A stretch of 49,837 nt of DNA, from positions 1 through 49,837 of the forward strand of contig DASH01000093.1 in assembly GCA_002503705.1 (NCBI GenBank), given 5' to 3'. Shown piece after piece: positions 12,490 through 48,110 of the stretch. Source of the DNA: Candidatus Woesearchaeota archaeon UBA153. Its GTDB lineage: Archaea; Nanobdellota; Nanobdellia; Woesearchaeales; UBA525. The notes under the pieces were generated by a model, which saw only the letters and a program-made list of their open reading frames with translations, was not told the DNA's origin and did not search any database. The position numbers and the translations under genes were made by a program. Positions within the stretch are counted from its first letter, which is position 1, and every line of letters starts with the position of its first letter.

Positions 12490-12520
12490 TTGTGGGGAAA
12501 AACTACGGAGATGATACCCA

Positions 12521-22458: not shown

Positions 22459-22665
22459 GTGGTTGTGACGGGGCGCGGTCGCCTTTATTAATATTCGGCA
22501 AGCGAGTTTTTACACGAGAAAAATTAATTTCTCTATGGAAAGTTATTCTTTTCGCGACGCTCTCGTGTCACCATCGCGTCACCATCGCGTCACTCTTGCG
22601 ACACTCTCGCGTCACCATTGCGACACTATTATAATACTACTGTTAAGTGAGGAATTTTTAGAAAA

Positions 22666-22699: not shown

Positions 22700-23830
22700 A
22701 TGAAGCGGCAGGCCACACTCCTCCTCCTCGCAGCCATGCTGCTCTCCCTCTTCGCCACCGCGACACACGGCGCCATCTACCACGACTACTACGGCAGCTA
22801 CGGCGACGACGAATTCCTCACATGGGAAGAGGACTGGCTGGAGAACGGCAAGAGCCACGCGACCCCGCCCTTCGCCCCCCAACCGAGCTTCGGCGGCTGC
22901 TACATCAGCACCGGCAAAGCGCTTTTGGAAGATCTCGACTGCGACAAGGTGCCGGACATCGCGGACAACTGCCTCGGCATCGCGAACCCGGACCAAGGAG
23001 ACCAGAACGCGAATGGTCTCGGCGACGCGTGCGACCTCGTCGTGAACAGCATCATCATCGACCCGCTCGTCGTCATGGAGGGGCGTGCCTTCCTCGTCAT
23101 CGTCACCGTCACGAACTACCGCCCGTACGAGCTGCGCAACGTGGACCTGCGCATCCAAGTGCCGGAGCTCGGCCTTGAACAGGTCGAGTACGTCACGAGC
23201 GTCAAGCAAGGCGAAGAGAAACGCTACGAGTTCTACCTGCGCTCGCCCGACTGCGTCCGACCGAAAGACTACGACGTCGTCCTCTTCGTCGAGATGCCGA
23301 AGAGTCCGGGCGTGAAAGAGTACTTCTACCTGCCCGCGCGCATGGGCGTGGCGAGCGGCGGCACGTGCACGGAAGCGCCGACCGGCGAAGGAAAGTCGAT
23401 CATCAACATCCTCGAAGTGCAGGACATCGACCCGGAGAAAGGCGGCCTGTACCCTTTCACGATTGTGAACCGTGAAGCGACCGGCCAAGCGTACGTCCTC
23501 ACGACCGATGGCCTTGAAGACTGGGGCGGCGCGCAGATCCAGCCGCGCAGCCTCATCGTCGTCCCCGCCGGCGAGAGCCGCGACGGCCTCTTGACGGTCT
23601 TCGCCAATGAAGGCGCAACCGGCGAACGAGCGTTCACGCTCACCTTGCGCTCGCAGAACGACGCCAAGCAAGTCGTGCTCCGCGCGCGCATGAAAGACAC
23701 GCTGCCCGGCGCGAGCGCGCAACGATTCCTGCTCTTCGGCCTCTTCATCATCGGCGCCATCCTCATCCTCGCCGGGTTCTTCTTCCTCGCCCGGCAGACG
23801 GCGGAACGGCGAGAGAAGAAATCAAAGTGA
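22700..23830 (+). CDS. Surface protein: signal peptide, thrombospondin type-3 Ca-binding repeat, CARDB/Ig-like modules, C-terminal TM anchor
   Basis: MKRQATLLLLAAMLLSLFATATHG; DLDCDKVPDIADNCLGIANPDQGDQNANGLGDACD; C-terminal FLLFGLFIIGAILILAGFFFLARQ. Paralog of 26022-27170. The track ORF start at 22535 is rejected. Confidence 0.75.
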   Translation: MKRQATLLLLAAMLLSLFATATHGAIYHDYYGSYGDDEFLTWEEDWLENGKSHATPPFAPQPSFGGCYISTGKALLEDLDCDKVPDIADNCLGIANPDQGDQNANGLGDACDLVVNSIIIDPLVVMEGRAFLVIVTVTNYRPYELRNVDLRIQVPELGLEQVEYVTSVKQGEEKRYEFYLRSPDCVRPKDYDVVLFVEMPKSPGVKEYFYLPARMGVASGGTCTEAPTGEGKSIINILEVQDIDPEKGGLYPFTIVNREATGQAYVLTTDGLEDWGGAQIQPRSLIVVPAGESRDGLLTVFANEGATGERAFTLTLRSQNDAKQVVLRARMKDTLPGASAQRFLLFGLFIIGAILILAGFFFLARQTAERREKKSK

Positions 23831-23926: not shown

Positions 23927-24733
23927 ATGGTTCGTGCTCAGAAGTCTGAAAGACCGTTACCGTTCGAGAATGCCGGCTGGTTGTTTCGCGACGTCCCGTA
24001 CGACCCTCTAGATTGGAGCAGGAAGACGGACTTGCTCGTTGCGATGTCGTTGTCGCCGAAGGTGACGCACGATGAAGCGATGACTGCGGCGCGCCTTACC
24101 GCTCCTGTCGCTCGGCCGTTGAGCATGGCTGTCCAGCGTGGACTGGTGGAGCGCATCTCTGCCGCACGCGATGATTCACGCGTCGACGAGACCCGCGATG
24201 CGTTTCTCGCGTTCTTGCGTAGCGTCTGGAAGCCGAGCGTTCTCCGTGCCGCGACGCAGACGACCTTCAAGCCCGGCAGTTTCGAAACGTCCTGCTATAC
24301 GCCGAACGGCGTTCGCATCCTTATCGGGGGCGAGTTGCCATATCGGAAGAGGAGCCAAGACTTGTGGCAGTATATGGAGCTCGCGCCGGAACAATCGGAA
24401 AAGCGTCTCGGACATGCCTGGCGGGTGTCTTCGTGGTATCGGAAGTGCATTGAGTCCGCCCTCGGTCCTTTCGAGGGGCTGGCCGCCGCGTACCAGTTCG
24501 CCGCTCCGCGCCGACAGAACGGCAGCCTCAGGCCGGTTTATACCAGGATCGCTTTACTAGATCGAGGCGAGAAAGCGTTGAAGGGCGGCTGGGTGTCCGA
24601 CGTCGACTACGTCAACGACGGCAACGTCGGCAGGTTCGTCCTGGTCCCGAGCGACTACCTCGTCAGCCTCGGGCCTGTTCTCGCGGGTGTGCAAAAAATC
24701 TCCACAGGAAGTGGAGGTTATCGTCGGAGATAG
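23927..24733 (+). CDS. Hypothetical protein (no recognisable family)
   Basis: 268-aa ORF with no internal competitor. The sequence is less GC3-biased than the flanking genes. It is followed by Family A copy A1. Confidence 0.5.
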   Translation: MVRAQKSERPLPFENAGWLFRDVPYDPLDWSRKTDLLVAMSLSPKVTHDEAMTAARLTAPVARPLSMAVQRGLVERISAARDDSRVDETRDAFLAFLRSVWKPSVLRAATQTTFKPGSFETSCYTPNGVRILIGGELPYRKRSQDLWQYMELAPEQSEKRLGHAWRVSSWYRKCIESALGPFEGLAAAYQFAAPRRQNGSLRPVYTRIALLDRGEKALKGGWVSDVDYVNDGNVGRFVLVPSDYLVSLGPVLAGVQKISTGSGGYRRR

Positions 24734-24815
24734 AATTGAGACGTATGGGGGTGTGGGGTGGCACCATCATCCTCGACCTCTTCCCACTTTCGCCACGCGT
24801 TCTCTTTTTCGTTGA

Positions 24816-24946
24816 ACGCCGTTGCCGTCCTGCTTGCTCTTTTGTCGCGTTCCTCGAGATGCGGGTCCTTCCCGGGTGGCACGACCCCTCCCGCATCAGC
24901 TTCTTCTCCTCGATGCAACGCTCGCCCTTAAGGACGGCAACGGTGT
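24816..24946 (+). ncRNA. Family A structured element, copy A1 (131 nt, shortest)
   Basis: Closing helix ACGCCGUUGCCGUCC / GGACGGCAACGGUGU (15 bp, one G-U that pairs only on the plus strand). Inner helix GAUGCGGG / CCCGCAUC. The 3' junction GCAACGCUCGCCCUUAAGGACGGCA is identical over 25 nt to copy A2. Confidence 0.55.
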
Positions 24947-24948
24947 CG

Positions 24949-25230
24949 TCATCGTTCATCCCTTCTTCCTTCCCATCCTAAGAACCGGCAGATCTCCTCT
25001 TTCTTTTCCGGGTTGAGGCTGACGTGCCACTCGCCGGTCTTCTTCATCCGCAGCAGGAACCCGTTACGATAGAGTTCTTCGATGGCCTCGGTCGTCTCTT
25101 TCCGGCCGCGCAGGTGCTTCGGCAGGCATTTCGTCAGGTTGACCGCTTCCGTGTGCGACGCGCCCCACTTCGCTGGATGGAAGTTCATCAGCTTCCAGAT
25201 TATTCGCACCTGGATTTCTCGTTGGTCCAT
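24949..25230 (-). CDS. Small winged-helix DNA-binding protein
   Basis: 93 aa: ...TEAVNLTKCLPKHLRGRKETTEAIEELYRNGFLLRMKKTGEWHVSLNP, that is a recognition helix plus a beta-wing pattern. TATA-like gtgtttatattgc is centred about 24 nt upstream on the minus strand. Confidence 0.6.
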   Translation of the reverse strand: MDQREIQVRIIWKLMNFHPAKWGASHTEAVNLTKCLPKHLRGRKETTEAIEELYRNGFLLRMKKTGEWHVSLNPEKKEEICRFLGWEGRRDER

Positions 25231-25376
25231 ACAGAAGGTGTCGCGTCAGTGTTTATATTGCTCACCAAAAAATTTCCGGAGGATTTCCGTCTTCTCCGTC
25301 GTGGTAAAACTCTAAAAAAGTATATTAATATTCCAAAATAAAAAGTATTAAATACTTGTTCTCCCTCCTTTTTCTC

Positions 25377-25754
25377 ATGAAAGAAGACACCCTCTTCCGG
25401 CACGCTCTCGGTGACAGCCCTACTATCCGCGTCCTTGAGCTCCTCATCGAGGGGCGCGAACTCGACCACTCACTCACCGACATCACGGAAATCGCGGGTG
25501 TCGGCTGGACGACACTGCACCGGCTCTGGCCGAACCTAGTCGGGGCCGGCCTCGTCAAGCAGACGCGGACGATTGGCCGCGCCAAACTCTACCGCCTAAA
25601 TTTAGATTCGAAGACGGCGCGCCAGCTCGTCAAGCTCTTCGAGACGCTTATCATGGAGGCGATGCCGAAGGATGCAGGGGAACTGGCGACTGCGACGGTA
25701 CCGGCTGCTCGGCGTGTCGCTGTCTCGACGGTTGATAACGGTGAAGCCCCGTAG
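25377..25754 (+). CDS. Winged-helix transcription regulator (ArsR/TrmB-like)
   Basis: MKEDTLFRHALGDSPTIRVLELLIEGRELDHSLTDITEIAGVGWTTLHRLWPNLVGAGLVKQTRTIGRAKLYRLN. TATA-like aaaagtattaaatac is centred about 28 nt upstream. The last 20 or so codons overlap the 5' arm of Family A copy A4. Confidence 0.7.
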   Translation: MKEDTLFRHALGDSPTIRVLELLIEGRELDHSLTDITEIAGVGWTTLHRLWPNLVGAGLVKQTRTIGRAKLYRLNLDSKTARQLVKLFETLIMEAMPKDAGELATATVPAARRVAVSTVDNGEAP

Positions 25755-25911
25755 GTCGCGACGCCTCGGAGCGACCCGGGAGACTCGCGTCCGGAACGCG
25801 AGGATCAGGAGCGACGCAGGCGCGACTGAGGGCTCCGCCCGACCATGGGGGCAACCCCCTCACCTCTTAGTTTCTGACGTCGTCACGCCTCGCCTGAGGC
25901 CGGTACCGTCG
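25693..25911 (+). ncRNA. Family A structured element, copy A4 (219 nt, divergent)
   Basis: Closing helix CGACGGUACCGGC / GCCGGUACCGUCG (13 bp). Inner helix GGUGA / UCACC. The 24-nt block ggtcgcgacgcctcggagcgaccc differs at 1 position from copy A2 (rc of 38072-38095). T5 at 25923-25927. Confidence 0.5.
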
Positions 25912-25987
25912 TCTCTGACGCCGTTTTTGTCGTCTTAGGACTGGAAAACACATTCATTACCACTATGTAATGGTTAAAGACCGTAAT

Positions 25988-25997
25988 CTTTATAAAG
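25988..25997 (+). promoter_or_regulatory. TATA-like box for the 26022 gene
   Basis: ctttataaag, centred about 29 nt upstream of the ATG at 26022. Confidence 0.45.
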
Positions 25998-26021
25998 TCA
26001 TTCTTCTTCCCCCCTCGAACC

Positions 26022-27170
26022 ATGGGGGCTCCCTTATCGACACGACTCTACGCGATCCTCGCGTGCATCCTTCTCGTACCGATCGCCGCAACCGCCACGC
26101 TCGCCGCGAGCACGGGGTGCGCGTACCAGACGCCGAACGGCCTCGTCACCGACCGCGACTGCGACGGCATCGACGACTTCCGCGACAACTGCCGCGAAAT
26201 CGCGAACACCGACCAGACGGACGCGAACCGCAACGGCATCGGCGACGCGTGCGACCTCATCATCACGAACCTCCTCCTCGACCCCGGCGTGGAAGTCCCG
26301 CAAGGAGAGTACGTCAACGTGAAAGTCCAACTCCTCAACAACAAAGCGTACGCTGTCAACGACGTGCAAGTCCGCGTGCGCAGCCAAAGCTTCGCGACCG
26401 ACAAGAACGTCCTCCTCACCAGCCTGCAGGCGGGCGAGCAGCGCATCGTCGAATTCGTCCTGAAGACGCCGCCGTGCGCGACCATCGGCAAGCACGAGCT
26501 CACCATCACGACCGACCATAAAGAGAACGGCAAGGTGTACACGCAGACGCGCTACCAACGCCTGAGCGTGACGCCCTCGCCGACGGCCTGCGCCGCCAAC
26601 CCGACCCCGCTCGACAACACGATCCTCGACACGATCGCCCAGCAAGAGACGCAACTCGGCGGGAACGCAGTCTACCCGATCACCATCACCAACCTGAACA
26701 GCGAAGCCAAAACCTACCACCTCTCCCTCGACAGCATCAGCATGATCGGCACGTACCGCATCGAGCCGAACCCGACGTTCACGCTCGACACGGGCAAGAG
26801 CCAGACGGTCTACCTGACCGTCCAGACGGAGACGTTCGCCCCCCTCGGGCGGAACGCGCTCCACCTCTACCTTGAAAGCGAAGACGCCGAAGACGAGACG
26901 GTCCTCACGCTCCGCATCGTCAAGCCGGTCGGCGCGAGCCTCAAAAACCTGCTCGCGACCGGACTCCAGCTCGCGTTCGTCCTCATCGCCTTGGCACTCG
27001 TCATCGGCGCCGCGATCATCGCGTACAAGAAAGTGAACGCGGACCACGAGGACGACGCTCACGACCACGACCAAGGGCCCAGCCGCGGCGACGAGAAGCC
27101 GAAGCGCGGGAAGAACGCCTCGAGCGTCGAGAAAATCGACGAGGACGAGGAGTTCCAAAGCTACTATTGA
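26022..27170 (+). CDS. Surface protein: signal peptide, TSP type-3 repeat, CARDB/Ig-like modules, TM anchor, acidic/basic cytoplasmic tail
   Basis: TDRDCDGIDDFRDNCREIANTDQTDANRNGIGDACD; TM LQLAFVLIALALVIGAAIIAY. Same architecture as 22700-23830. Confidence 0.75.
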   Translation: MGAPLSTRLYAILACILLVPIAATATLAASTGCAYQTPNGLVTDRDCDGIDDFRDNCREIANTDQTDANRNGIGDACDLIITNLLLDPGVEVPQGEYVNVKVQLLNNKAYAVNDVQVRVRSQSFATDKNVLLTSLQAGEQRIVEFVLKTPPCATIGKHELTITTDHKENGKVYTQTRYQRLSVTPSPTACAANPTPLDNTILDTIAQQETQLGGNAVYPITITNLNSEAKTYHLSLDSISMIGTYRIEPNPTFTLDTGKSQTVYLTVQTETFAPLGRNALHLYLESEDAEDETVLTLRIVKPVGASLKNLLATGLQLAFVLIALALVIGAAIIAYKKVNADHEDDAHDHDQGPSRGDEKPKRGKNASSVEKIDEDEEFQSYY

Positions 27171-37303: not shown

Positions 37304-37975
37304 ATGCGCCATCACGGGTCTGAACGGGTCGGCTTCCTCTTCCTCCTCGCCTTCCTCCTCTTCGCGATCATCCTTCTCCTCACGACGTGCACTCCCGCGG
37401 CGGAGACGGAAGATTGCGGCGTCGAAGCGGCGAAACGGGAATCGTTCGTCCAAGACTTGGTCGCCGAGAACACGGCGATGCGGAACAACCTCGACCTGCT
37501 CCACGAGACGCTCTTGCGGTGCGAAGTCCTCGCGCTCGAAGAGAACGAGACGCTCGGCATGTGCATCGACCGGTTGCAACAGCTCAGCGAGGCGCCGTTA
37601 GAGCGCGAACACCCGTACGCGCGCATCCCCGTCGAGAAGATACGGTTCTCTCCGGACGCGGTCACCATCCGGGTGCCGGGCGTCACGCCCGTCACGCTCG
37701 CCGACACGAACAGCATGGACCCGCTCGCCGACGCCGACACGAAAGTCCTCGTCATCAAGCCCGTGACGGCGCGAGACTTGCACGTCGGCGACATCATCGG
37801 CTACCGCTGCTCGACGTGCACCGAGGACGAGATCATCATGCATCGCATCGTCGCGATCGCCGAGGACGCGCAAGGCGTCTTTTACACGCTGAAAGGCGAC
37901 AACAACCCGGAACCGGACCCGGACAGGGTGCGATTCTCGCAAGTCGAAACGGTAGTCGTTGGAATAATATATTGA
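37304..37975 (+). CDS. S26-family signal peptidase I-like protein with long N-terminal TM plus coiled-coil extension
   Basis: TNSMDP (Ser box), GDIIGY, IIMHRIV (His box), LKGDNNPEPDP. N-terminal TM FLFLLAFLLFAIILLL. Confidence 0.7.
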   Translation: MRHHGSERVGFLFLLAFLLFAIILLLTTCTPAAETEDCGVEAAKRESFVQDLVAENTAMRNNLDLLHETLLRCEVLALEENETLGMCIDRLQQLSEAPLEREHPYARIPVEKIRFSPDAVTIRVPGVTPVTLADTNSMDPLADADTKVLVIKPVTARDLHVGDIIGYRCSTCTEDEIIMHRIVAIAEDAQGVFYTLKGDNNPEPDPDRVRFSQVETVVVGIIY

Positions 37976-37982
37976 TCCTTCA

Positions 37983-38155
37983 GCGACGCTGCCGTCCTTA
38001 AGGGCGAGCGTTGCTGCCGGGATAACAACAGATGCGGTGGGGGTCGCCCCGTGTTCGGGCAGAGCCCTCACGGGTCGCTCCGGGGCGTCGCGACCATCCG
38101 GGGGGAATCGCACACGACGTCCTGCATCGAAGAGCGAGCTGGACGGCAGCGTCGC
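37983..38155 (-). ncRNA. Family A structured element, copy A2 (173 nt, minus strand)
   Basis: RNA sense: closing helix GCGACGCUGCCGUCC / GGACGGCAGCGUCGC (15 bp). 5' junction AGCUCGCUC and 3' junction CGCUCGCCCUUAA are identical to A3. Inner helix UGCGAU / ACCGCA with flanking UCCCCCC and CCCCC. Confidence 0.55.
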
Positions 38156-38180
38156 AGCACGCCGAAAAAGCAGGTAACGG

Positions 38181-38357
38181 CTGGCGCGGCAAGAAGTCAG
38201 AGTCCGAATCGAAGTTCGACGACAGACGAAACGACGACGTTCATGGACGAGAAAATCACGACGGACGAGAAGAACGCGACGCACGACGGACAAGAACTGC
38301 GAAACGCGCGAGAACGAGGAACTCCGGGCCGCGCCAGCACGAACCGGGCACCGCCCG
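38181..38357. repeat. Family B structured repeat, copy B2 (longest)
   Basis: CUGGCGCGG (38181-38189) ... CCGCGCCAG (38329-38337), then hairpin CGGGC-ACC-GCCCG (38345-38357). It starts 25 nt from the end of A2. Confidence 0.5.
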
Positions 38358-38372
38358 ACCCCTCATTCGGAA

Positions 38373-38384
38373 AACTATAAAAAC
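38373..38384 (+). promoter_or_regulatory. TATA-like box for the 38406 gene
   Basis: aactataaaaac, centred about 27 nt upstream of the ATG at 38406. Confidence 0.45.
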
Positions 38385-38405
38385 TCGAGAGTGGTGACTG
38401 AACCC

Positions 38406-38663
38406 ATGCCTTCCCAACGCGCGCTCATCTTCCTCAGCATCCTCGTAGCCTTGCTCCTGCTCGGCGCGGTCGCCACGTTCACCGGCCTCGTCACGTACCA
38501 GGACACGGACGCGGGCGTCGTCGTCCGGCCGGACAACGTCGTCACGTTCGAGAACGGCGACCTGCGAACCTGCTGCACGTTCACCCTCGACGGCGAGCAG
38601 AAGACGTGCAGCGTCCTGCAACAGTACGACTGCAGTTATTGCAACGAGTACTGCGCGACGTAA
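38406..38663 (+). CDS. Small membrane-anchored or secreted Cys-rich protein (85 aa)
   Basis: MPSQRALIFLSILVALLLLGAVATFTG..., then 7 Cys in the last 40 residues (CC...C...C..C...C). The ATG is chosen from TATA spacing. The track ORF begins at GTG 38391. Confidence 0.6.
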   Translation: MPSQRALIFLSILVALLLLGAVATFTGLVTYQDTDAGVVVRPDNVVTFENGDLRTCCTFTLDGEQKTCSVLQQYDCSYCNEYCAT

Positions 38664-38672
38664 GAAGAATTC

Positions 38673-38984
38673 TTACCGTTTCCTGAGCGCGACTTCCGCC
38701 GCTTGCTCTTCCAAGTCTTTGATGCGGTGGCGTATCTTCTGGCAGAACCAATACTTGTCCCGCTCGTCCTTGATGAGGTGGAAGAGCACTTCGTCCTCGA
38801 GCACGTCGAGAATCCACGCGGCGAAGTCGTTCCGCGTCCCGATGACGTGCGTGCGGAAGACGTCCTCGCCCGTGTGCTCGATCGTGTCGACGAGACTGTA
38901 GATGTTCATCGCGCGCGTCCCGTTGCAGAACCAGAACCCTTTATCCGGTTGGACGTCTCGTAACGGATCTATCACGCAGCTCAC
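38673..38984 (-). CDS. Small conserved hypothetical protein, paralog of 30510-30770
   Basis: GFWFCNGTRAMNIYSLVDTIEHTGEDVFRTHVIGTRNDFAAWILDVLEDEVL aligns with RFFLHEGGELASLEDLFTELQSMKPHVFQHHVNADKNDFAVWVRDVMQDRFL. Confidence 0.65.
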   Translation of the reverse strand: MSCVIDPLRDVQPDKGFWFCNGTRAMNIYSLVDTIEHTGEDVFRTHVIGTRNDFAAWILDVLEDEVLFHLIKDERDKYWFCQKIRHRIKDLEEQAAEVALRKR

Positions 38985-39096
38985 CTCTCCTTCTCGTTGC
39001 TCTCAGCGTTTCAGTATTAATACTTAATCGTTTTTTGCTGAGCGCGAGCTCAGTACCGTGCAACGATGTTCGGTGGACGCGTAGTCCAGTACGCTG

Positions 39097-39202
39097 CTGG
39101 CGCGGCAAAAATCATGGTCGTGGTTCTGAACGGTACTGCTGTACTCGCGGGAACTTTGACGAGAAATTCCGTGCCGCGCCAGTACTGACCCGCCGCGGCG
39201 GG
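39097..39202. repeat. Family B structured repeat, copy B3 (shortest)
   Basis: CUGGCGCGG (39097-39105) ... CCGCGCCAG (39174-39182), then hairpin CCCGC-CGCG-GCGGG (39189-39202). The flanking CAGUA/UACUG can extend the helix across a 5-nt bulge. Confidence 0.55.
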
Positions 39203-39326
39203 CGTCCATCTTGCCGAGATTGAATATCGTTGAAAACGACCATTTTTCTCGTGTTTCCACTTTCGAGTGGAGAGAACTATTTATAAGGCTTGTCGGCTTA
39301 CGTTGTAAGAAGAAAGGGGGTTTTTG

Positions 39327-40535
39327 ATGCTCACGCTTGACTTGCATACGTTACCGGGAGACTTCTCAATCCTCCACGAGAAACTCGCGCAGATTAAGAA
39401 CTCGCCACGGCCAGCGTTCGCGAACTACGCTCCGGACTACGGGGTCCTGTATAGCCTCGCGGGCAAGTACGCGGGGACGACGCACTTCATCATCATCGGT
39501 CGCGGGGGCAGCGTGACCGGCTTCAAGGCCTTGTATGACGCGCTCGCCGCGATGAAGACGTCGAAGAAGGTCCACCTGCTCGACACGATCGACCCTGACT
39601 ATACGGCGTACTTGCAACGCACCTGCCACCCCGACGACACGCTCGTCATCGCGATCAGCAAGAGCGGCGATACCGTCGACGTCTTGGAGAACCTGCTGTG
39701 CTTCCCACACCATAAGAAGATCGTCGTGACGGAGAACAAAAACGGCGCGTTGGCGAAGTTCGCCGAGGCGAAACAGTTGGAAGTCGTCAAGCACCCGTCC
39801 ATCGGCGGCAGGTTCTCGACGGGCACGGAGTGCGCGTTCCTGCCGGGAGCGCTCATCTACGTTGACGTGCGCAGCGTCGGCGGCGGCTTGAACGCCATCC
39901 ACGCCGCATGCGACCCGTCGCAACCAATCGAGCGGAACCCGGCGTTGCGCCTCGCCGCCGCCCTCTACTTGGCGGAGCAGAAAGGCCTGACGGAAGTCTA
40001 CGCTCCCCTCTACAGCAAGGCGCTCGCGGGGTGCGCGGAACTCTTCACGCAACTCTTGCACGAGAGCGCGTGCAAGCAAGGGCGAGGCCAGACGTTCTTG
40101 TTCATGGAGGCGCCGGAGTGCCAGCACCACAGCAACCAGAAGTTCTTCGACGGTCCGCGCCGCATGGCCGGCGTTTTCACGCGCGTCGAGCGGCCGGAGC
40201 ACGACGTCTCGATTCCGGAAGACCCTGTGGCCTCCTCGGTCGTCGCCCCCGGCATCCCGCTCAAATCGTTGCTGGGCGAGCGTCTCGCGGACGCGATGCG
40301 GTTCGAGTATGAAGGCGTGCGCGGCGCGGCCGATGCCTCGAACATCCCGAATGCGACGGTCACACTCGATGTCTTGAATCCCGGCACGTTGGGCGAGCTG
40401 ATCGGCTTCTGGGAGTACGTCGCCGTCTACTCCTCGTTGCTCCGGAACGTTGACCCGTTCGACCAGCCCGGCGTGGAAGCGTCCAAGCGTTTGAGCCGCG
40501 AAAAGCGTCTGGAAGCCCTGAAACCGCGTTATTAG
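39327..40535 (+). CDS. pgi: Glucose-6-phosphate isomerase (SIS-domain PGI family)
   Basis: IIIGRGGSVTGFKAL, ISKSGDTVDVLENL, GGRFSTGTECAFLPGAL. ATG preceded by aaaggggg. TATA-like ctatttataagg at 39278-39289. Confidence 0.8.
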   Translation: MLTLDLHTLPGDFSILHEKLAQIKNSPRPAFANYAPDYGVLYSLAGKYAGTTHFIIIGRGGSVTGFKALYDALAAMKTSKKVHLLDTIDPDYTAYLQRTCHPDDTLVIAISKSGDTVDVLENLLCFPHHKKIVVTENKNGALAKFAEAKQLEVVKHPSIGGRFSTGTECAFLPGALIYVDVRSVGGGLNAIHAACDPSQPIERNPALRLAAALYLAEQKGLTEVYAPLYSKALAGCAELFTQLLHESACKQGRGQTFLFMEAPECQHHSNQKFFDGPRRMAGVFTRVERPEHDVSIPEDPVASSVVAPGIPLKSLLGERLADAMRFEYEGVRGAADASNIPNATVTLDVLNPGTLGELIGFWEYVAVYSSLLRNVDPFDQPGVEASKRLSREKRLEALKPRY

Positions 40536-40616
40536 GGCGTTTGAGGGTTCTCGTTTCGTCGCGGACTCCTTTTTCCTTTCTCGTCGGAGACCTATCATAA
40601 ACTTTATAAATAAACT

Positions 40617-43451
40617 ATGACTACTGTTCAGGAACTACTAATAAGAGTTTTGTTGGGGGAAGTGCAAACCATGTCGTTCGGCGTGACTTCAATCAGACGT
40701 TGGCTCTCAGACTGGAAACCGGGAGCGACCCTGTACGCCGGCATCGGCGCCACCCTCCTCGCAGGCTTCTTGAACGCGCAAACCATCCAGACGGCAAACC
40801 TGCACACAATCAAGCACGGCGACAACCTCACCAAGATCGTCAAACAATACTATCCGGAACTCCGGACTGACCGGGAAGTCGCGAACAGAGTTCTCGAGAT
40901 CCAAGCGGACCCTGAGAACGCGGAAGCGTTCAACCTTGGCGATAACAGCGGACGAGACTGCATCGGTTTCACCGGAAAGACTGTGGAAGGCAACTTCGTA
41001 CGCGACCCGGTCCAACCTGTGACTGGGTGCTTCCCGGACGGCCAGTACGACAAACTCGTCCCGGGCACGGTGCTCCACTTCCCGGACGCGGTCGAGACCA
41101 CGGTGCAGACACCGGTCGTCGTTGCTGAACCCGGCGCTCCGACTTCAGTCGTCGCAACACCCAGTGCTCCAGCCGCCGTCGTCACGCCCGCACCCGTCAT
41201 TCCGCAATTCGTCGAGCCAGACGTGAACGCGCCCCCTTTCTCGAAGTCGAAACTCGTGAACCCTGAAGCGACCCTCGAAGAGACCGTCGCCGCGACACCA
41301 ATCACCTCGATGCCACCGTCGAGTTCTTCGTATATCGGCTACGCGCCGTTCGAACCAACACCCTCTTCACTCCTGCAAGAACGGCGTGAACCCGCGTTCC
41401 CGGAAAGCCCGACGGCGAACCCGCTCGACGACCGAGGGACGGAAACGTGGTTCCGGAACCGTTACGTTGTCGAGTCGACCCTCGCCGACCGGTTCAAGGG
41501 CTGCCTTCCCTACCTCGGTGCCGCCGCGCTGGCCGTCGGCCTCCTCGCGTACGGCATCGTCCGCCAACGCCGTGAACAACACGCCGCGCCCGTCGACCTT
41601 GACGTGCTCCTCGCCGATGACGTGCCTTCGGTCGAAGTGGAGGCCGCATTGAAGGCTGAAGAGCACCCCGTGACGGTCAAGCTCCTCGAAGTCGCGGAAG
41701 GCTACTTGCCGCCACGGGCCGTCCGAAATTTGTACTCGCTCTTCCACCCGCTCGGCGTCTGCGGGCTCAGACGGGAAGAGAGGCTCGACCCCGGCCTCGA
41801 CTTCTCGAACTCGACCGACGCGCCCACGAATGTGCCGTTCGAACCGGTCAAAGACCCCGGCTACGTCCCGCCCGCGCTCCAAGAACGCTTCGATGAAGGG
41901 GCTGGTTTCGGCACGACGCCACCGTCGGTCTCGGGGACGGTCACGCCCGCGCCCGTCGCGCCCTTGCAACCCTTCACCACGGAGACTGCGGAAGAGGCCA
42001 TCCCGATTCCGCCGTTCCCCCCGCTCTTGCCGGATGATGAGCGAGAACGCTTGCCAGGACGAGAACAACCAGTCTTGGAACCCTCGATTGAAGCGCCGGC
42101 GCCGAAACCGGCCGAGCCCATACCGTTCTCCGAACCCGCGCCGTCGCACGAACAGCTCATCAAGGCGCTCCAGGACAAGAGCTTGCCGGCGTACTATCGC
42201 AGAGTCTACGTTCAAGAGAACTTGCAGAACCTTCCGGAATCGGTGACGCAAGCCCTCAAGATTCAAAGAGAAGAAGGAGAAGGACCGGGAGGTTTTGGTG
42301 TGGACAGGGCGAAATATGTCACGCAAGCGCCGAATGGACGAGTCACCGCGGAACTCCCCGAACCAGTCCCTTCCGTCGTCGCGCCGACAACCGCGACCTC
42401 TCTTCCTCCCGATGCACCGCTCGACTTGACAGCTGTTGGAGCGGAAGTCAGACGGGTCCGGAACTTGAAACGCTTGAATCTCATCGCCGAAGTGACTGGC
42501 GTTCCACCGCCAACACTTTCTTCGGACGAGCCGTCCGTTTACGAGAGAGCACTCGGACTCGAACCGCCCGTCGAAGTCCCGCCCCTGCCTTCGCTGGAAG
42601 AGCCGCGAGCCACCGAGCCCGTGAACACCTCTCGGCTTAACTTCGGCGGTCCGCCAATGGACGATACGATTGATAGCGCCGTCGAGGCACGGCTCAACCC
42701 CGTCGAGTCTCCCCCCGTCGACACGAGCAAGGTCATCATGTCGGTCAGGGCGAAGAAAGATAAAGACCCCGACAAGAACGGCGGCAGCGGAACACCACCG
42801 ACTGACAACGGCCCCTTCAACCTCACACCGCCTCCAACTGGCGGTTCGGCAGCCGCGCCGTTGAGCAATCTTGTCGCGTTCACCGAGCCTTCACCGTTGA
42901 GCAGCAAGAACCTCGCGTCCATCATCGCCGAGACGTACCGGACGGACCGTGCCGCGGCTCGAAGCATCTACCAGAAGCTCGCGCCGGACGAACAGCTCGA
43001 CACCGTCAAAGAACTGTACCGAGCGCCGGTCGTGGCCATCAAGCAGCGCGGCCTCGCCGGCGCGCGCCACTCCGCGAACTACGTCTCAATCGACAACCTC
43101 GTCGACCTCACCGGCGCGGTGAACAAGTACGAACAGCTCCGCACGCTCGACGCTGCTGGAGTCCTCAGCCACGGCCGCGCCGCCGCGCAGAAAGAGTACG
43201 TGGCCGCGCGACGGGACGACGCGGAACTCCTGTACGACAACGGTATCGCCGTCAAAGACATCGCGCAGCAGCTCGGCGTGAGCGCGTCCACCGTCTATCG
43301 TGACTTGAAAGTCCGGCGTGACGTGAAGGGCGCCGCGACGAGCGAGTACAAGGCCTCCGACGCGAAACGAGTCTCCCCGGCCGCGCGAGCGTACGCTGGT
43401 CGCACGACGCCGGCCGCGACCGCACAGCCTGCGGCGCCGACGATGAACTAG
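40617..43451 (+). CDS. LysM-domain, TM-containing, proline-rich protein with C-terminal helix-turn-helix
   Basis: LysM: HTIKHGDNLTKIVKQYYPEL. TM: LPYLGAAALAVGLLAYGIV. A long P/E/A-rich low-complexity region follows. C-terminal HTH: NGIAVKDIAQQLGVSASTVYRDLKVRRD. Alternative start ATG 40671 (MSFGV...). Confidence 0.7.
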   Translation: MTTVQELLIRVLLGEVQTMSFGVTSIRRWLSDWKPGATLYAGIGATLLAGFLNAQTIQTANLHTIKHGDNLTKIVKQYYPELRTDREVANRVLEIQADPENAEAFNLGDNSGRDCIGFTGKTVEGNFVRDPVQPVTGCFPDGQYDKLVPGTVLHFPDAVETTVQTPVVVAEPGAPTSVVATPSAPAAVVTPAPVIPQFVEPDVNAPPFSKSKLVNPEATLEETVAATPITSMPPSSSSYIGYAPFEPTPSSLLQERREPAFPESPTANPLDDRGTETWFRNRYVVESTLADRFKGCLPYLGAAALAVGLLAYGIVRQRREQHAAPVDLDVLLADDVPSVEVEAALKAEEHPVTVKLLEVAEGYLPPRAVRNLYSLFHPLGVCGLRREERLDPGLDFSNSTDAPTNVPFEPVKDPGYVPPALQERFDEGAGFGTTPPSVSGTVTPAPVAPLQPFTTETAEEAIPIPPFPPLLPDDERERLPGREQPVLEPSIEAPAPKPAEPIPFSEPAPSHEQLIKALQDKSLPAYYRRVYVQENLQNLPESVTQALKIQREEGEGPGGFGVDRAKYVTQAPNGRVTAELPEPVPSVVAPTTATSLPPDAPLDLTAVGAEVRRVRNLKRLNLIAEVTGVPPPTLSSDEPSVYERALGLEPPVEVPPLPSLEEPRATEPVNTSRLNFGGPPMDDTIDSAVEARLNPVESPPVDTSKVIMSVRAKKDKDPDKNGGSGTPPTDNGPFNLTPPPTGGSAAAPLSNLVAFTEPSPLSSKNLASIIAETYRTDRAAARSIYQKLAPDEQLDTVKELYRAPVVAIKQRGLAGARHSANYVSIDNLVDLTGAVNKYEQLRTLDAAGVLSHGRAAAQKEYVAARRDDAELLYDNGIAVKDIAQQLGVSASTVYRDLKVRRDVKGAATSEYKASDAKRVSPAARAYAGRTTPAATAQPAAPTMN

Positions 43452-43475
43452 GCATTTCCCGTACCTTTTCTCCTC

Positions 43476-43653
43476 GTGCGAGTGCCGTCCAGCTCGCTCA
43501 TTGTTGAGAATGTCGAGTGCGGTTCCCCCCGTGAGTCACGGCGACGGAACGTCGCCGGGAAGTTGGAAACGTTCCGTTCCCAACTGGACTTCCCCCACCG
43601 CAACCGCTTCTTCCCTCGCTTCCGTCGCTCGCCCTTAAGGACGGCACTCGCAC
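43476..43653 (+). ncRNA. Family A structured element, copy A3 (178 nt)
   Basis: Closing helix GUGCGAGUGCCGUCC / GGACGGCACUCGCAC (15 bp perfect). Inner helix UGCGGU (43518-43523) / ACCGCA (43597-43602). Internal hairpin CGGCGACG-GAA-CGUCGCCG (43539-43557). T5 at 43657-43661. Confidence 0.6.
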
Positions 43654-43741
43654 TCGTTTTTCCTTTCTGTCTCATGTCTCAAAAGCAAACTTTTTAAATG
43701 CCCTTCTCGGTGGGGCGAGGGTAGAGCGTGAGTGTGGGACT

Positions 43742-45571
43742 GTGTTCGGTCTAGAGACGATTTTCCTCAACCAGGCGGGACTGGTCACCGCGCTCGTCCT
43801 CCTCCCGTTCTTCATCATCTACCTCATCCGGCCGAAGCCCCGCCACGAGACCGTGCCGAGCCTCTTGTTCATCATGAAAGACATGGGGAAGAACAACATC
43901 GACAGCTTCTTCCGCACGTTCTTCAAAGACTTCCTCTTCCTCATCCAACTCCTCCTCCTGCTCCTCCTCATCACCGCGGCCGCGAAACCCTTCCTCAACG
44001 TCCCGAAATCCTACCTCGTCGAGCAGACCGTCCTCATCGTCGACGCGAGCGCTTCCATGAACGCGGACAACCGTTTCAAGCAAGCCGTCGAGATCGCGGA
44101 CGAAGCGCTCGGCAAGCAGAACACGATCATCACCGTCACGTCCGCTCCCGAAGTCCTCGTCGAACGCGTCGGCGAAGGCGAGGCGCGCCAAGCCTTGAAA
44201 CGTCTCAAGGCGGCGGACACGACGACCGCGTTGAGCGACGCGCTCCAACTCGCGACGGGGTACGCGACGACCGGCACGAGAGTCGTCGTCGTCAGCGACT
44301 TCCTCCCGAGCGCAGGAGACCTCGACTACGAGACTGCCGCGGACGTCCTGGAAGGCACGGGCGCGCTCATCGAGTACCGACCCGTCACCGGCGGCACGAG
44401 GAACGTCGGCATCATCGACTTGCAACCCGGCCCGGTGACGAGCAGCGTCTGGGTGAAGAACTACGACGCGAGACCCGCCGACGTCACCCTCCGGATCAGC
44501 GACGCGAAACAACAACTCCTCCTCGCGCCGGGCGAGACGAAAGAGGTCACGTTCAAGACGCCCGCCGGCGTCGCCGAGCTGAAGCTCGAACCGGACGACG
44601 ACCTCCTCGTGGACAACGCGGCGTGGGTGAGCGCTCCCGAAAAGACGACGATCAAGATGCTCGTCATCACGAACGAGAAAGCCAGGGTCGAGCGGAGCAA
44701 CTTCCTCCTCGCGCTCAACGTCATCTCGAAGAACTTCCCCACCACGTTCGACATCCGCTACGCGGTACCACCGCAGATTCCCGCGCTCGACCACGACGTC
44801 TATGTCATCGACCAGGCGAGCCTGCAGTTCATCCTTCCCGGGTACATCCGGGACTTGCAGAAGAAAACGGCTGAAGGCGCCGCCGTCATCGTCTTCCAAC
44901 AAGAAGGGCTCTTCGCGATCGACTGGCAAGGACTCCTCCCTGTCAGCCCGGCGAACGACACGAACGGACTGCGAACGCAACTCCTCCCCTCAAGCATGAA
45001 GACGCTCACGAACGACATCGAATTCGGGCAGGTCGGGAGTTACCTCCGCGTCGTCGCGACGCCGGACGCGAGCGTTCTCGCCGCGACCGCGACCGCCGAC
45101 CCGATCATCGTGACGCGCCGCATCGAGAAAGGCCACGTCCTCTACTACGGCCTCGACGACACCAAGGCGAGCTTCAGCAAAGACCCCAGCTACCCCGTCT
45201 TCTGGCGGCGAACGTTCGACCTGCTCACGAACCGGCCGAGCTTGGAAAACTTGAACGTGCGGACTGGCAACGTCCTCACCCTGCCGCGAGCCGTCAAGAT
45301 AAAGACGCCGGACGGGAGCAAGACGGCGAGCATCCTCCCGCTCGACAAGGCCGGACTGTACACCCTCCCGGATAGGACGATCGCGGTCAACCTCCTCTCC
45401 GACCGAGAGTCGAACATCCTCACGACGGAGAACGTGACCGCGTCGCGCGCCGCCACCGGCGAGAAGACGAGCGAGAAAGCGCCGAAAGACTTGACTGACT
45501 GGGCCTTGTGGGCCGCGATCGCAGTCCTCCTCTTCGAGATCCTCTACGTCAAGTACCGGGGTGACTTCTAG
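43742..45571 (+). CDS. BatA-like protein: N-terminal double-TM aerotolerance-regulator domain plus vWA domain
   Basis: GTG start. LVTALVLLPFFIIYLIRPKPRHETVPSLLFI. vWA MIDAS motif VLIVDASASMN. C-terminal TM WALWAAIAVLLFEILYV. Confidence 0.75.
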   Translation: MFGLETIFLNQAGLVTALVLLPFFIIYLIRPKPRHETVPSLLFIMKDMGKNNIDSFFRTFFKDFLFLIQLLLLLLLITAAAKPFLNVPKSYLVEQTVLIVDASASMNADNRFKQAVEIADEALGKQNTIITVTSAPEVLVERVGEGEARQALKRLKAADTTTALSDALQLATGYATTGTRVVVVSDFLPSAGDLDYETAADVLEGTGALIEYRPVTGGTRNVGIIDLQPGPVTSSVWVKNYDARPADVTLRISDAKQQLLLAPGETKEVTFKTPAGVAELKLEPDDDLLVDNAAWVSAPEKTTIKMLVITNEKARVERSNFLLALNVISKNFPTTFDIRYAVPPQIPALDHDVYVIDQASLQFILPGYIRDLQKKTAEGAAVIVFQQEGLFAIDWQGLLPVSPANDTNGLRTQLLPSSMKTLTNDIEFGQVGSYLRVVATPDASVLAATATADPIIVTRRIEKGHVLYYGLDDTKASFSKDPSYPVFWRRTFDLLTNRPSLENLNVRTGNVLTLPRAVKIKTPDGSKTASILPLDKAGLYTLPDRTIAVNLLSDRESNILTTENVTASRAATGEKTSEKAPKDLTDWALWAAIAVLLFEILYVKYRGDF

Positions 45572-45572
45572 A

Positions 45573-48110
45573 ATGCTCCTCCCGCTCATCGGCGACCTCG
45601 TCGGCGACGTCTTCCTCACCAGTCCGAAACTCCTCTGGGCGATTCCCGGCATCGCGGTCTTCCTCCTCGCGCTCCTCCTGTACGACTTCGTCAACCTCCC
45701 CCTCTCGCCGGACGAGCGTCGACGCCAGCGGCGGACGCGCTGTTGGATCTTCCTCTCCCGGCTGCTCATCATCACGATGCTCGTCATCGCGCTCGCGCAC
45801 CCGTACATCGAGCGGACGAAAGCGGTGAAAGGGAACCCGCGCGTCACCCTCCTCGTCGACACGAGCGCGTCCATGGCCGTGCTCGACACGAAGTTCGCGG
45901 ACGGTCTCGCCGACCTCCTCGGACGCCACGTCCCGACGACGGTGCGCCCGGCCGGGACGAACCTGACGAGCGACATCGGCAGCGCGGCGTTGCGCAACCT
46001 CGAGCCTGGCGGCTACCTCCTCCTCCTCACCGACGGGAACGTCAACGAAGGCGCCGCTCTTGAAGACGTCGCGTTCTACGCGTCGACGCTCAACGCGACG
46101 GTCAGCAGCATCGACTTGACCGCGACCGCCAGCGACGCCGGCATCCTCCTCCTCGGGCCGTCGAAAGTCGTCGCGGACAGCGACGCGACGTTCAACGTCA
46201 TCGTCACCGCGACGGCGCCGGACGCGACCGCGAACTTGAAAGTCTTGGTGGACGGCTCGGTCGTCCTCGACAAGCGAGTCTCGCCCGGCACGTATTCGTT
46301 CACGAAACAGTTCTCGACCGGAGACCACCGGATTGAGGCGGCGCTCGACGGCGGCGACGCGGTCTCGGCGAACGACCGGTTCTTCAAGGCCGTGCACGTC
46401 CTCCCCAAGCCGCGCATCCTCCTCGTCTCCGTCAAGAACAGCCCGCTTGAGCTCCTCCTCCGCGACCTGTATGACGTTGACAAGCGGCCGAACCTCCCTG
46501 CTGACTTGAGCCCGTACTACGCGGTCGTCGTGGACGACGCGCCCATCGAGAGCTTGCGCAACACGAAAGTGCTGCACGACTACCTCATCGACGAGACGGA
46601 CGGGTATTACGGCGGCGGCCTCGTCCTGTTCGGCGGCATGGACAGCTTCGACCGCGGCGCCTATTCGGGCAGCGCTCTCGAGCCGCTCCTCCCCGTCAAG
46701 GTCGGCAAGGGCGAGCGGAAGAAAGGGAACGCGAACCTCGTCTTCCTCGTCGACGTGAGCGGCTCGACGGCGAAGACCAAGTACGTCGTCCAGGACGGGC
46801 GGACCGTCCAGGTGAACGAGAGCCTCAGCACGCTCGACGTGATCAAGGCGCAGGTCGTCAACGCGGTCGGCCAGCTCAAGCTGGAGAACAAGGTGTCCGT
46901 CATCGTCTTCGGCGTCCCGCCCGACGTCTCCCTTGAGGGCGTCGAAGACCGGATTGCCGACACGGTCAAGATTATCGAGAAGCTCGACTTCCTCTACAAC
47001 AACCGGCAGGAGATCCTTACCAAGGTGCCGCGGATCGTGGGCGGCGGCCCGACCGCTGCCGACGTCGCCTTCCGAGGAGCGGTCGAGATGCTGAAGAACG
47101 CTGAAGGCGACAAGAACGTCATTCTCATGACGGACGGCCGTTACTCCGCCGGCTTGGGCGCGGAGAGCCCGATGAAGAAGCAGCTCTTGACGCTCGCGTC
47201 GAACGCGCACAAGCTGTATGGGGTCAACTTCATGACGATCGGCACGGGGACGACCAGCACCGACTTCTCAAAGAAGGTGGACGAGACGTTCCTGAAAGAG
47301 TTGGCGAAGGCGGGTGACGGGACGTACGACCGCGCCACCCAGCTCAACTCCCTCCTTGTCAAGTGGGGAGACCCGAAGGCGAAGAACTTCGGCGAGGAGT
47401 TCGTCCTCGTCCCGTTGAGCTTGACGCACTTCATCACGCGAGACCTCGAGCCGACCGCGGTCTTGAACGCGTACAGCGAAGTCGTGCCGAAAGACACCGC
47501 GGAACTCCTCATCGCGGCGGATAGCGGCCAGCCGGCGTTGACGGTCTGGCGGTACGGGAACGGCCGCGTCGCCACGTGGACGGTCTTCGCGGGGAACAAC
47601 CTCGGGCAGCTTTTGAACGGGGAGAACTCTCTCTTGCTGTCGCGCACGGTCAACTGGGCGATCGGCGACCCGCAGCGCAAACAGCCGTACTTCGTCGACA
47701 TCCCGGACACGAGGATGAACGAGCAGGGCTTCGTCACGGTGAAGAGCGACGCTCCGGTCACGAGCGACACCCTCGTCTTCGTCAAGGACGGCAGCGTCTA
47801 TACTGCGCGCTTCGACCCGTCGAGTGAAGGGTTCGCCCAGCTGCTCGGCTTGACGTACGCGATCAACCGTCCGAGCGAGCTCGACCGGACTGGGATGAAC
47901 CCTTTCCTCGCCGAGCTGGTGACCACGACCGGCGGAAAAGTATTTAAACCGTCGGAGAGCGATGCGATGATTGAGCATATCAAGGAGGTGTCGAAGCGCG
48001 TCACGGTGACGAAACAGGACGCCGCGATGCCGTTCTTGATTGCGGCGTTGGCGCTGCTGCTCCTCGAGTTCGCGTTGCGGCGCATCACGGACCGGAGGCG
48101 GAATAACTGA
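45573..48110 (+). CDS. BatB-like membrane protein with two vWA domains
   Basis: N-terminal TM pair. TLLVDTSASM and VFLVDVSGST MIDAS motifs. C-terminal TM MPFLIAALALLLLEFAL. Starts 2 nt after the upstream stop. Confidence 0.75.
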   Translation: MLLPLIGDLVGDVFLTSPKLLWAIPGIAVFLLALLLYDFVNLPLSPDERRRQRRTRCWIFLSRLLIITMLVIALAHPYIERTKAVKGNPRVTLLVDTSASMAVLDTKFADGLADLLGRHVPTTVRPAGTNLTSDIGSAALRNLEPGGYLLLLTDGNVNEGAALEDVAFYASTLNATVSSIDLTATASDAGILLLGPSKVVADSDATFNVIVTATAPDATANLKVLVDGSVVLDKRVSPGTYSFTKQFSTGDHRIEAALDGGDAVSANDRFFKAVHVLPKPRILLVSVKNSPLELLLRDLYDVDKRPNLPADLSPYYAVVVDDAPIESLRNTKVLHDYLIDETDGYYGGGLVLFGGMDSFDRGAYSGSALEPLLPVKVGKGERKKGNANLVFLVDVSGSTAKTKYVVQDGRTVQVNESLSTLDVIKAQVVNAVGQLKLENKVSVIVFGVPPDVSLEGVEDRIADTVKIIEKLDFLYNNRQEILTKVPRIVGGGPTAADVAFRGAVEMLKNAEGDKNVILMTDGRYSAGLGAESPMKKQLLTLASNAHKLYGVNFMTIGTGTTSTDFSKKVDETFLKELAKAGDGTYDRATQLNSLLVKWGDPKAKNFGEEFVLVPLSLTHFITRDLEPTAVLNAYSEVVPKDTAELLIAADSGQPALTVWRYGNGRVATWTVFAGNNLGQLLNGENSLLLSRTVNWAIGDPQRKQPYFVDIPDTRMNEQGFVTVKSDAPVTSDTLVFVKDGSVYTARFDPSSEGFAQLLGLTYAINRPSELDRTGMNPFLAELVTTTGGKVFKPSESDAMIEHIKEVSKRVTVTKQDAAMPFLIAALALLLLEFALRRITDRRRNN

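Follow-up and report, generated by a model that had tools for sequence, protein, structure and literature searches.

What is the hairpin-closed element that recurs between the genes of a woesearchaeal chromosome: a structured RNA, or a repeat that spreads as DNA? The question arises from a 49,837-nucleotide (nt) stretch of contig DASH01000093.1 of Candidatus Woesearchaeota archaeon UBA153 (the window), in which an initial annotation, made from the letters alone, had picked out four copies of an element, family A, and proposed a functional RNA, for example a small RNA (sRNA) derived from 3' untranslated regions. All four copies lie where, and in the orientation in which, that annotation placed them, and about 30 more are present on about 20 contigs of Woesearchaeota and Nanoarchaeota metagenome-assembled genomes (MAGs) and metagenomes. 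We tentatively favor a different reading, to which we give a little under even confidence: that family A is a structured repeat of the REP/ERIC/MITE-like kind, one that propagates as DNA and is recognized as a folded single strand. The copies in the window are as follows:

24816-24946, plus strand: copy A1, 131 nt, the minimal form, between convergent genes; covariance-model score of 112 bits
25693-25911, plus strand: copy A4, 219 nt, a diverged relative with only a weak covariance-model match
37983-38155, minus strand: copy A2, 173 nt, 7 nt past the stop codon of a convergent signal peptidase I gene
43476-43653, plus strand: copy A3, the type copy, 178 nt, a whole hairpin-closed element; 75.6 bits, E = 1e-13

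The helix P1 that closes each copy has 16 bp with one G·U pair in A1, 15 perfect bp in A2 and A3, and 13 perfect bp in A4; the helices are those that the initial annotation gave. When the window was searched for inverted repeats with arms 90-320 nt apart, the long near-perfect intergenic pairs were those of A1 to A4 and of a hairpin at 38180-38338. The four copies fold far better than their dinucleotide shuffles (z = -5.3, -4.5, -4.5, and -3.7), with none of 200 shuffles as good. The sequence CTTAAGGACGGC occurs exactly three times, once each in A1, A2, and A3. As annotated, A1 and A2 have an identical 25-nt block in common, and the block with one mismatch common to A2 and A4 is real but spans 25 nt rather than 24. 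A4 keeps the architecture of the family, but its P1 (CGACGGUACCGGC/GCCGGUACCGUCG) is different and its 3' junction is a variant, CGCCUCGCCUGAG. Scanning the whole window with a covariance model, filters off, gave significant matches to A1, A2, and A3 and to nothing else, with A4 weak.

The type copy A3 is built as follows:

43476-43490, plus strand: 5' arm of P1, GUGCGAGUGCCGUCC, 15 bp, 100% complementary to 43639-43653
43491-43497, plus strand: 5' junction, an A followed by GCUCGC (5' strand of helix P1b), conserved in nearly all copies
43498-43516, plus strand: 5' linker, G-poor, variable in sequence and constant in length
43517-43523, plus strand: 5' strand of helix P2, GUGCGGU, whose partner ACCGCA(A)C is at 43597-43604
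43524-43596, plus strand: core, with UCCCCCC, variable hairpins (including a GGAAAC/GUUCC-type stem), and CCCCC
43597-43604, plus strand: 3' strand of P2, ACCGCA-A-C, pairing with 43517-43523
43605-43625, plus strand: 3' linker, pyrimidine-rich
43626-43638, plus strand: 3' junction, CGCUCGCCCUUAA, the 3' strand of P1b with a 5-nt bulge
43639-43653, plus strand: 3' arm of P1, GGACGGCACUCGCAC, the complement of 43476-43490

Across the family, elements are 115-290 nt long, and P1 has 9-17 bp and is nearly free of mismatches, reaching ~30 bp at three of the loci outside the window (L008, L016, and L059). The outer sequence of P1 is different in every copy; only the inner 6-8 bp are common within the main subfamily, and even these are altered in L007, A4, L025b, L050b, and L064. 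P1b consists of one U-A pair and then GCUCGC/GCUCGC, which forms four Watson-Crick pairs around tandem Y·Y mismatches, and in L007 full pairing is restored by the variants GCGAGC/GCUCGC and GCGAAC/GUUCGC. Opposite P1b is a conserved 5-nt bulge, CCUUA(A), and over 20 copies, belonging to different organisms, carry the 18-mer GCTCGCCCTTAAGGACGG unchanged. The conserved junctions of the initial annotation (5' WGCUYGC and 3' CGCUCGCCCUUAA) and its C-rich unpaired segments were recovered, as was its covarying internal helix, P2, which is imperfect in A2 (GUGCG/CGCAU plus a mismatch). P2 has 5-9 bp, and all six modelled pairs have changed on both sides. In 29 copies the linkers have lengths of 21-24 nt (5') and 19-24 nt (3'), or ~22 nt, while their sequences are saturated, and a search for pairing between the two linkers found none that is consistent. 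The core follows the scheme Y-CCCC-loop-GGGG-NN-ACCCCC, with loops that are mostly GUAA, GUGA, GUA, or GAA; short copies have a CCCC-loop-GGGG hairpin and then RACCCCC, and in long copies one to five further hairpins, with stems of the GGAAAC/GUUUCC type, enlarge it. In the 67 loci, GGAAAC..GUUUCC and AGAAAC..GUUUCU hairpins are confined to copies of the element, and we rejected GGAAAC hairpins as an independent mini-element, none being found outside copies.

The sequence just outside P1 is asymmetric, with 70% C+T in the last 10 nt of the 5' flank (p = 2e-6) and no bias in the 3' flank. Pairing of the two flanks into a further helix outside P1 is no better than in controls (p = 0.31), and K-turn, 11-nt tetraloop receptor, and bulge-helix-bulge motifs, compared with the junction by eye, do not fit. 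All copies can also form an alternative local hairpin (at 43631-43644 in A3), in which the end of the 3' junction, CGCCC, pairs with GGACG of the P1 3' arm around a UUAA loop. Its two sides have changed together in A4 (GCC-UGA-GGC), L050b (UCAC-AAAG-GUGA), and a copy at L007-2802 (CGC-CCGUAA-GCG).

The compensatory changes on which the RNA proposal was founded hold up in the larger sample. In an alignment of 29 distinct sequences, 91% of cells pair and 23 of the 28 modelled pairs have changed on both sides; none of 500 shuffles has as high a covariation score, and shifting the partner by one to three columns lowers pairing to 34-49%. An independent MAFFT alignment of 12 sequences gives the same picture, again with none of 500 shuffles reaching the observed score. 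Within the single genome of L007 there is a compensatory series, GUCGACA/UGUCGAC, GGCGACA/UGUCGCC, and GCAGACA/UGUCUGC. The fold is therefore under constraint or actively maintained, and nothing speaks more strongly for the initial annotation than this. However, the G·U pair that had been taken as an indicator of strand loses its meaning in these numbers. P1 pairs comprise 416 Watson-Crick, 6 G·U, and 4 A·C, and all helices combined have 27 G·U and 21 A·C, whereas a functional structured RNA is expected to tolerate G·U far above A·C. The pairing counts give no RNA-type strand signal, and the arms look more like DNA palindromes than RNA helices. Folding energy is also uninformative as to strand: of 31 copies, 27 have the more stable fold on the minus strand, simply as a result of its G-rich loops, those of the given strand being G-poor.

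How the copies were gathered sets the scope of these comparisons. A scan of one genome per species with the 19-mer GCTCGCCCTTAAGGACGGC yielded ten matches, two of which have the architecture of the element, both in DPANN archaea (the Nanoarchaeota MAG L007 and the Woesearchaeota MAG L008), and a scan of metagenomes yielded 50 loci, ~20 of them genuine. The covariance model, built from 12 short copies, found 30 matches including diverged ones; diverged relatives like A4 are probably under-counted by it. One further copy came to light in L064. Density can be high, with four copies in the 50 kb of the window and, on the 4-kb L007 contig that carries ribosomal protein L15e, four copies, one in each intergenic space. 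The copies are mosaic, with long blocks identical between loci that differ elsewhere (L015/L016, A1/A2, and A2/A4), which indicates that they recombine with one another. In the L015/L016 pair, ~75 nt of 3' sequence are identical (L015 1494-1570 and L016 ~3870-3960; the P1 3' arm and a downstream hairpin, GTGCCG...CGGCAC), whereas neither the 5' arms nor the interiors agree; the lineage concerned has an extension module on the 3' side. Copies within one genome have 53-66% identity over the model columns, no closer to each other than to copies of other genomes, and homogenization within genomes was looked for and not seen.

Orthologous sites differ in state between lineages. At the signal peptidase site, both the window (A2) and L016, whose genes have ~72% nucleotide identity to the window, carry a minus-strand copy in matching place and orientation; A2 has 0.62 identity to this positional counterpart, no closer than to its own paralogues. 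In L064 (45% protein identity), a copy occupies the same intergenic space in the opposite orientation, on the plus strand, between direct repeats of 16 nt in which the end of the peptidase gene is duplicated. The site is empty in L061, since the peptidase stop codon is directly followed by the TATA box of the next gene, and L063 and L065 likewise have no copy there. Altogether, ~85 kb of L061, L063, L065, L066, and L067 contain no copy and no comparable hairpins, the first three of these contigs being syntenic with the window and L066 and L067 sharing its BatA gene cluster.

A3 provides a second example, in which the element and a gene are found together:

40562-40581, plus strand: left copy of a direct repeat, CGGACTCCTTTTTCCTTTCT, starting 26 nt after the PGI stop codon
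40617-43451, plus strand: gene for a 944-aa ORFan protein, between the direct repeats and with A3 at its 3' end
43649-43668, plus strand: right copy of the direct repeat, CGCACTCGTTTTTCCTTTCT, starting in the last 5 nt of A3, including T5, and 18/20 identical to the left copy

The consensus of the 20-nt repeat is CG[G/C]ACTC[C/G]TTTTTCCTTTCT, and the 12-mer TTTTTCCTTTCT is present at these two places only in the window (0.11 occurrences expected). The 3.09 kb comprising the ORFan gene and A3 are missing from syntenic L061, L063, L064, and L065, and, being bracketed by the direct repeat and absent from these relatives, are an insertion of which A3 is the right-hand end. The protein has no homologue among 5.8e9 proteins and only helix-turn-helix (HTH)-level matches in PHROGs and NCBIfam; it is Pro-rich, with one predicted transmembrane helix and a C-terminal HTH of resolvase/transposase type, and the GC content at third codon positions (GC3) of its gene is 0.73, compared with 0.85-0.91 in the neighbors. 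The initial annotation had held that its proposal would fall if the copies were fragments of a protein-coding or transposon sequence. This applies in part, A3 being the terminal part of a direct-repeat-flanked insertion, a position that fits mobile or duplicated DNA.

Placement relative to genes was examined by calling genes in all loci with a codon model and counting orientations over 31 copies. Relative to the element, the upstream and downstream genes are opposite/opposite in 8, same/opposite in 7, same/same in 6, and opposite/same in 4, and orientation relative to the neighbors is random. For about 20 of the 31 copies the nearest stop codon is no more than 45 nt away, and convergent genes supply it as frequently as co-oriented ones; seven are between convergent and four between divergent genes. 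A3 begins 25 nt past the stop codon of its co-oriented gene, and A4 overlaps the last 62 nt of a winged-HTH (wHTH) open reading frame (ORF), with T5 10 nt downstream. A1 is 83 nt past a co-oriented gene, with T5 (24803-24807) between, and 2 nt from the stop codon of a convergent gene. Three of the four copies had been annotated as lying at the 3' end of a co-oriented gene, a position that only A3 and A4 truly occupy. A T5 run is found 7-10 nt upstream of P1 in both A1 and A2. In L008, as in A4, the copy extends over the 3' end of an ORF. Although TATA boxes are obvious in the gene promoters of these genomes, they are missing at the right distance (-25) from most copies, including A1 to A3, the L007 copies, and the L050 pair, whose head-to-head copies are separated by only a GC-rich 64-nt spacer.

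Given these patterns, we lean, still at slightly less than even confidence, toward viewing family A as a lineage-specific, multi-copy non-coding repeat of Woesearchaeota/Nanoarchaeota, an archaeal counterpart of REP/BIME, ERIC, and MITE-like elements. The element would spread and persist as DNA, and a putative trans-acting protein would recognize its conserved fold and its unpaired motifs on one folded strand, either single-stranded DNA (ssDNA), as in IS200/IS605-RAYT systems and integron integrases, or a transcript. Recognition of a single strand is suggested by the G-poor linkers, the pyrimidine-rich 5' flank, and the asymmetric bulges. Insertion would prefer pyrimidine-rich tracts adjoining gene ends, and read-through from a neighboring gene would put a very stable RNA structure at the end of its mRNA, perhaps with secondary effects on transcript ends.

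Family A shares several features with the bacterial palindromic repeats ERIC/IRU, REP/BIME, Correia/NEMIS, RUP, and RPE, most of which are MITE-like. They too are multi-copy, non-coding long imperfect hairpins of 100-300 nt, lie between genes near gene ends in either orientation, are patchy among relatives, have size variants from internal insertions, and are co-transcribed with their neighbors by accident. Family A differs in that its terminal inverted repeat is kept in structure rather than sequence, there is no regular target-site duplication, diverged copies retain covarying helices, fixed linkers, and unpaired motifs, and the host is a DPANN archaeon. In contrast to REP systems, no RAYT or transposase partner is known; no Y1_Tnp domain was found among the window proteins scanned, and the low identity of copies within a genome is unlike that in REPIN populations. 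The IS200/IS605 palindrome-associated elements (PATEs) and REP-RAYT, in which Y1 HUH enzymes act on folded ssDNA, share with family A non-autonomous hairpins, insertion without target duplication, strand-asymmetric recognition of folded strands, and a short, one-sided, pyrimidine-rich flank. Their subterminal hairpins are conserved, and hairpin sequences are conserved within a genome, whereas in family A a single helix closes the whole element, with no TnpA, TnpB, or RAYT gene seen; a PATE or omega-RNA of an IS200/IS605 element is thus not what we find in the window.

Several observations weigh against a DNA-level repeat. First, comparison of flank matches with 898 mismatched control pairs reveals no general target-site duplication (p = 0.42); L064 (16 nt) and L008 (9-nt flanking direct repeat) alone stand out, exceeding all 898. 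Neither conserved terminal inverted repeats nor a fixed-length duplication at every copy is present, and family A is therefore not a classical cut-and-paste MITE, although presence or absence at orthologous sites and patchy distribution agree with one. Second, no transposase or recombinase partner was found in the genome fragments inspected, and the window proteins scanned include no transposase, integrase, TnpA, TnpB, or Y1_Tnp. Third, T5-T7 runs directly follow A3, A4, and the L008 copy, and four or five copies (among them L015, L034, L053, and L058a) have a canonical TATA (TATAAAAAG box) 23-26 nt before P1, although these boxes are ambiguous, being placed so that they could also serve divergent genes. 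Fourth, old and diverged copies all keep intact stems, junction motifs, and linker lengths, as a decaying selfish repeat should not; this looks like purifying selection on each copy, and hence a function for the host, and conserved loops with covarying stems are the classical signature of functional RNA. Intact old copies could reflect a function of each copy, continuous repair of copies against one another, or renewal by a fold-reading enzyme.

An alternative that we regard as possible, but distinctly less so than a DNA repeat, is that the element is a new class of fold-recognized single-strand module in DPANN. As a multi-copy ribonucleoprotein RNA, it may offer its bubble of 22 x 22 nt and its C-rich loops as guide or decoy surfaces; as an attC-like recombination site, it may insert, invert, and carry genes, the cassette with the 944-aa ORFan and A3 at its end being a possible example, and it would then represent a gene-capture system new to genome-reduced archaea.

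Marginally more doubtful than this is a candidate non-coding RNA family expressed from the given strand, either stand-alone or processed from neighboring transcripts. P1 would protect and define the ends, the bulge and junction would be a putative protein-binding module, and the C-rich strands (UCCCC and ACCCCC(U)CC) and the two ~22-nt unpaired strands would face G-rich targets or a protein; an anti-Shine-Dalgarno or sponge RNA, a 6S/Y-like bubble RNA, and a guide RNA are possible modes. What makes it a serious rival is that P1, P1b, and P2 covary strongly around conserved unpaired motifs (as in the L007 series), that the linkers are held at ~22 nt despite saturated sequence, and that old copies all keep the fold. 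The G-poor loops of the given strand, the TATA boxes and T-runs noted above, and persistence of the element at the signal peptidase site in lineages down to 45% amino acid identity also favor it. Nonetheless, most copies have no recognizable promoter, the TATA boxes of L015 and L058a are also ~24 nt from divergent ATG codons, and the T5 runs of A1 and A2 are immediately upstream. Orientation is random, with 8 of the 27 informative copies allowing antisense read-through only, A·C is about as frequent as G·U, and close syntenic relatives lack the element, all of which tells against the sRNA derived from 3' untranslated regions that was first proposed. As guides, the linkers have no complementary match of at least 12 nt in the window except in other copies, and the alignment has neither C/D (RUGAUGA/CUGA) nor ACA/K-turn boxes, with no Rfam match to a small nucleolar RNA on any copy. 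Family A resembles bubble-containing regulatory RNAs (6S RNA and Y RNA) and sRNAs with C-rich loops (RsaE and LhrC) in its long closing stem, large unpairable internal loop, C-rich unpaired motifs, and conservation of structure above sequence; however, those are promoter-driven genes in one or few copies, whereas family A has many copies, most of them without a promoter and all in random orientation, and close relatives lack it.

That the family matches no RNA known to Rfam accords with the initial annotation, which did not recognize it. A search of the whole window against Rfam 15 at the gathering score gave no covariance-model match, and no copy was matched when 24600-26100 was searched at E < 10, 37800-43900 at E < 5, and L007 and L064 at E < 1. 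We found no description of the element in the literature searched on DPANN and archaeal integrons, and the family appears undescribed.

Improbable, in our estimation, is an attC-like, structure-specific recombination site, a folded DNA strand read by a recombinase and marking the 3' end of mobile gene cassettes. Nanoarchaeota with integrons bearing canonical attC sites have been described (PMC9668308), and, like attC, family A preserves fold over sequence: its stems covary, certain unpaired bases are conserved, the terminal structure varies in length, and the termini are not conserved. It can also sit 3' of an inserted gene, as A3 does at the end of the ORFan gene. A4 overlaps the 3' end of a small wHTH gene of low GC3, and the co-oriented A1 and A4 bracket two small low-GC3 genes. 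Many loops of the core (P3) are C-GNA-G or C-GNNA-G, which are very stable in DNA too. However, the R'' (RYYYAAC) and R' (GTTRRRY) boxes of attC are absent, with no AAC/GTT boxes in P1, and copies of 115-290 nt exceed typical attC sites of 57-141 nt. Integron recombination yields no direct repeats, and these flank some insertions of family A. Arrays of attC are recognized as co-oriented sites with short cassettes, at least two sites <4 kb apart, with or without IntI (PMC9668308). Family A copies are instead dispersed singly in both orientations, mostly between housekeeping genes (as in the L15e region of L007) and without a cassette-like ORF, and no integrase gene was seen in the window.

We consider slightly less probable still a host cis-element for transcript ends in compact genomes, a GC-rich hairpin that blocks read-through or 3' exonucleases on either strand. 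The closeness of ~20 of 31 copies to stop codons, the seven copies between convergent genes, the T-runs adjoining several copies, and the symmetry of P1, which can form in transcripts of either strand, agree with such a role, but the conserved asymmetric interior, the fixed linkers, and the covarying P2 are left unexplained. Archaeal termination depends on U-tracts and not on hairpins, syntenic relatives have the same gene junctions without the element, and there are no transcript ends between divergent genes, the setting of four copies. Other explanations were rejected: there is no match in phage or plasmid collections, and the window contains no tRNA. Nor is the element a small protein gene: ORFs on both strands cross every copy, and 'AVLKGER' is encoded on the minus strand of both A1 and A3, but the similarity reflects conserved nucleotides only and core lengths differ by non-multiples of three.

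The window itself is ordinary chromosome of a DPANN archaeon, with a GC content of ~61%. Its genes include those for glycosyltransferases, an epimerase, inositol monophosphatase, PGI, a DsbA-like thioredoxin, signal peptidase I, BatA/VWA/MoxR-type proteins, and large surface proteins, and homologues of the signal peptidase and BatA carry the names Nanoarchaeota or Candidatus Woesearchaeota. Around A1 and A4 (23927-25911), three genes (268 aa; 93 aa on the minus strand; and the 132-aa wHTH) have GC3 of 0.72-0.74, compared with 0.80-0.91 flanking them, and have no Pfam, PHROG, or NCBIfam assignment beyond HTH; perhaps the region is a small island that was acquired, with a copy at each side in one orientation. 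L063 has a tRNA-Leu(CAA) gene where the window has A4 and the small wHTH genes, and a palindrome, CATTACCACTATGTAATGG, with a TATA box is conserved at 25945-25990 and at L063 2600-2650, upstream of a TSP_3/FixG_C surface-protein operon. Adjoining A2, the hairpin-closed segment 38180-38338 has arms GCTGGCGCGGC/GCCGCGCCAGC 123 nt apart, is pyrimidine-rich on the minus strand, lacks family-A motifs, and is missing from syntenic relatives. It contains a 46-codon ORF starting MDEKITT, which echoes sequence at 36372. The segment may belong to another family of repeats or have arisen by local duplication. The 15-mer AAGGACGGCAGCGTC of the A2 3' arm recurs at 47784-47798 inside the VWA gene 45573-48110, probably by chance, since the GACGGC codon motif is common. 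Elsewhere, there are intergenic tandem repeats at 12423-12501 (16 nt x 5, AGAATCGTGAGAAAAG, after gene 11090-12448) and 22552-22628 (11 nt x 7, TCGCGTCACCA, upstream of gene 22700-23830), which may be iteron-like or regulator-binding arrays, and a 15-nt repeat x 6 (AGCGGGAAATCTTCG) at 9776-9865 inside the large ORF 8688-11093.

DPANN genomes are tiny (~1 Mb), and some DPANN lineages hold this 115-290-nt element in a large share of their intergenic regions, as in the contig with four copies in 4 kb. The family can confound the discovery of sRNAs and riboswitches, and, since ORFs extend into copies, gene calling as well. Its copies flag genes that were inserted recently, and it is a marker for strain-level rearrangements in Woesearchaeota MAGs. 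If family A is selfish DNA, it would be the first well-defined REP/ERIC-like repeat family of DPANN, and a case in which covarying structure can persist without conserved ends, which would imply an enzyme that reads the fold; as an RNA or a recombination site, it would represent a functional class of a new kind.

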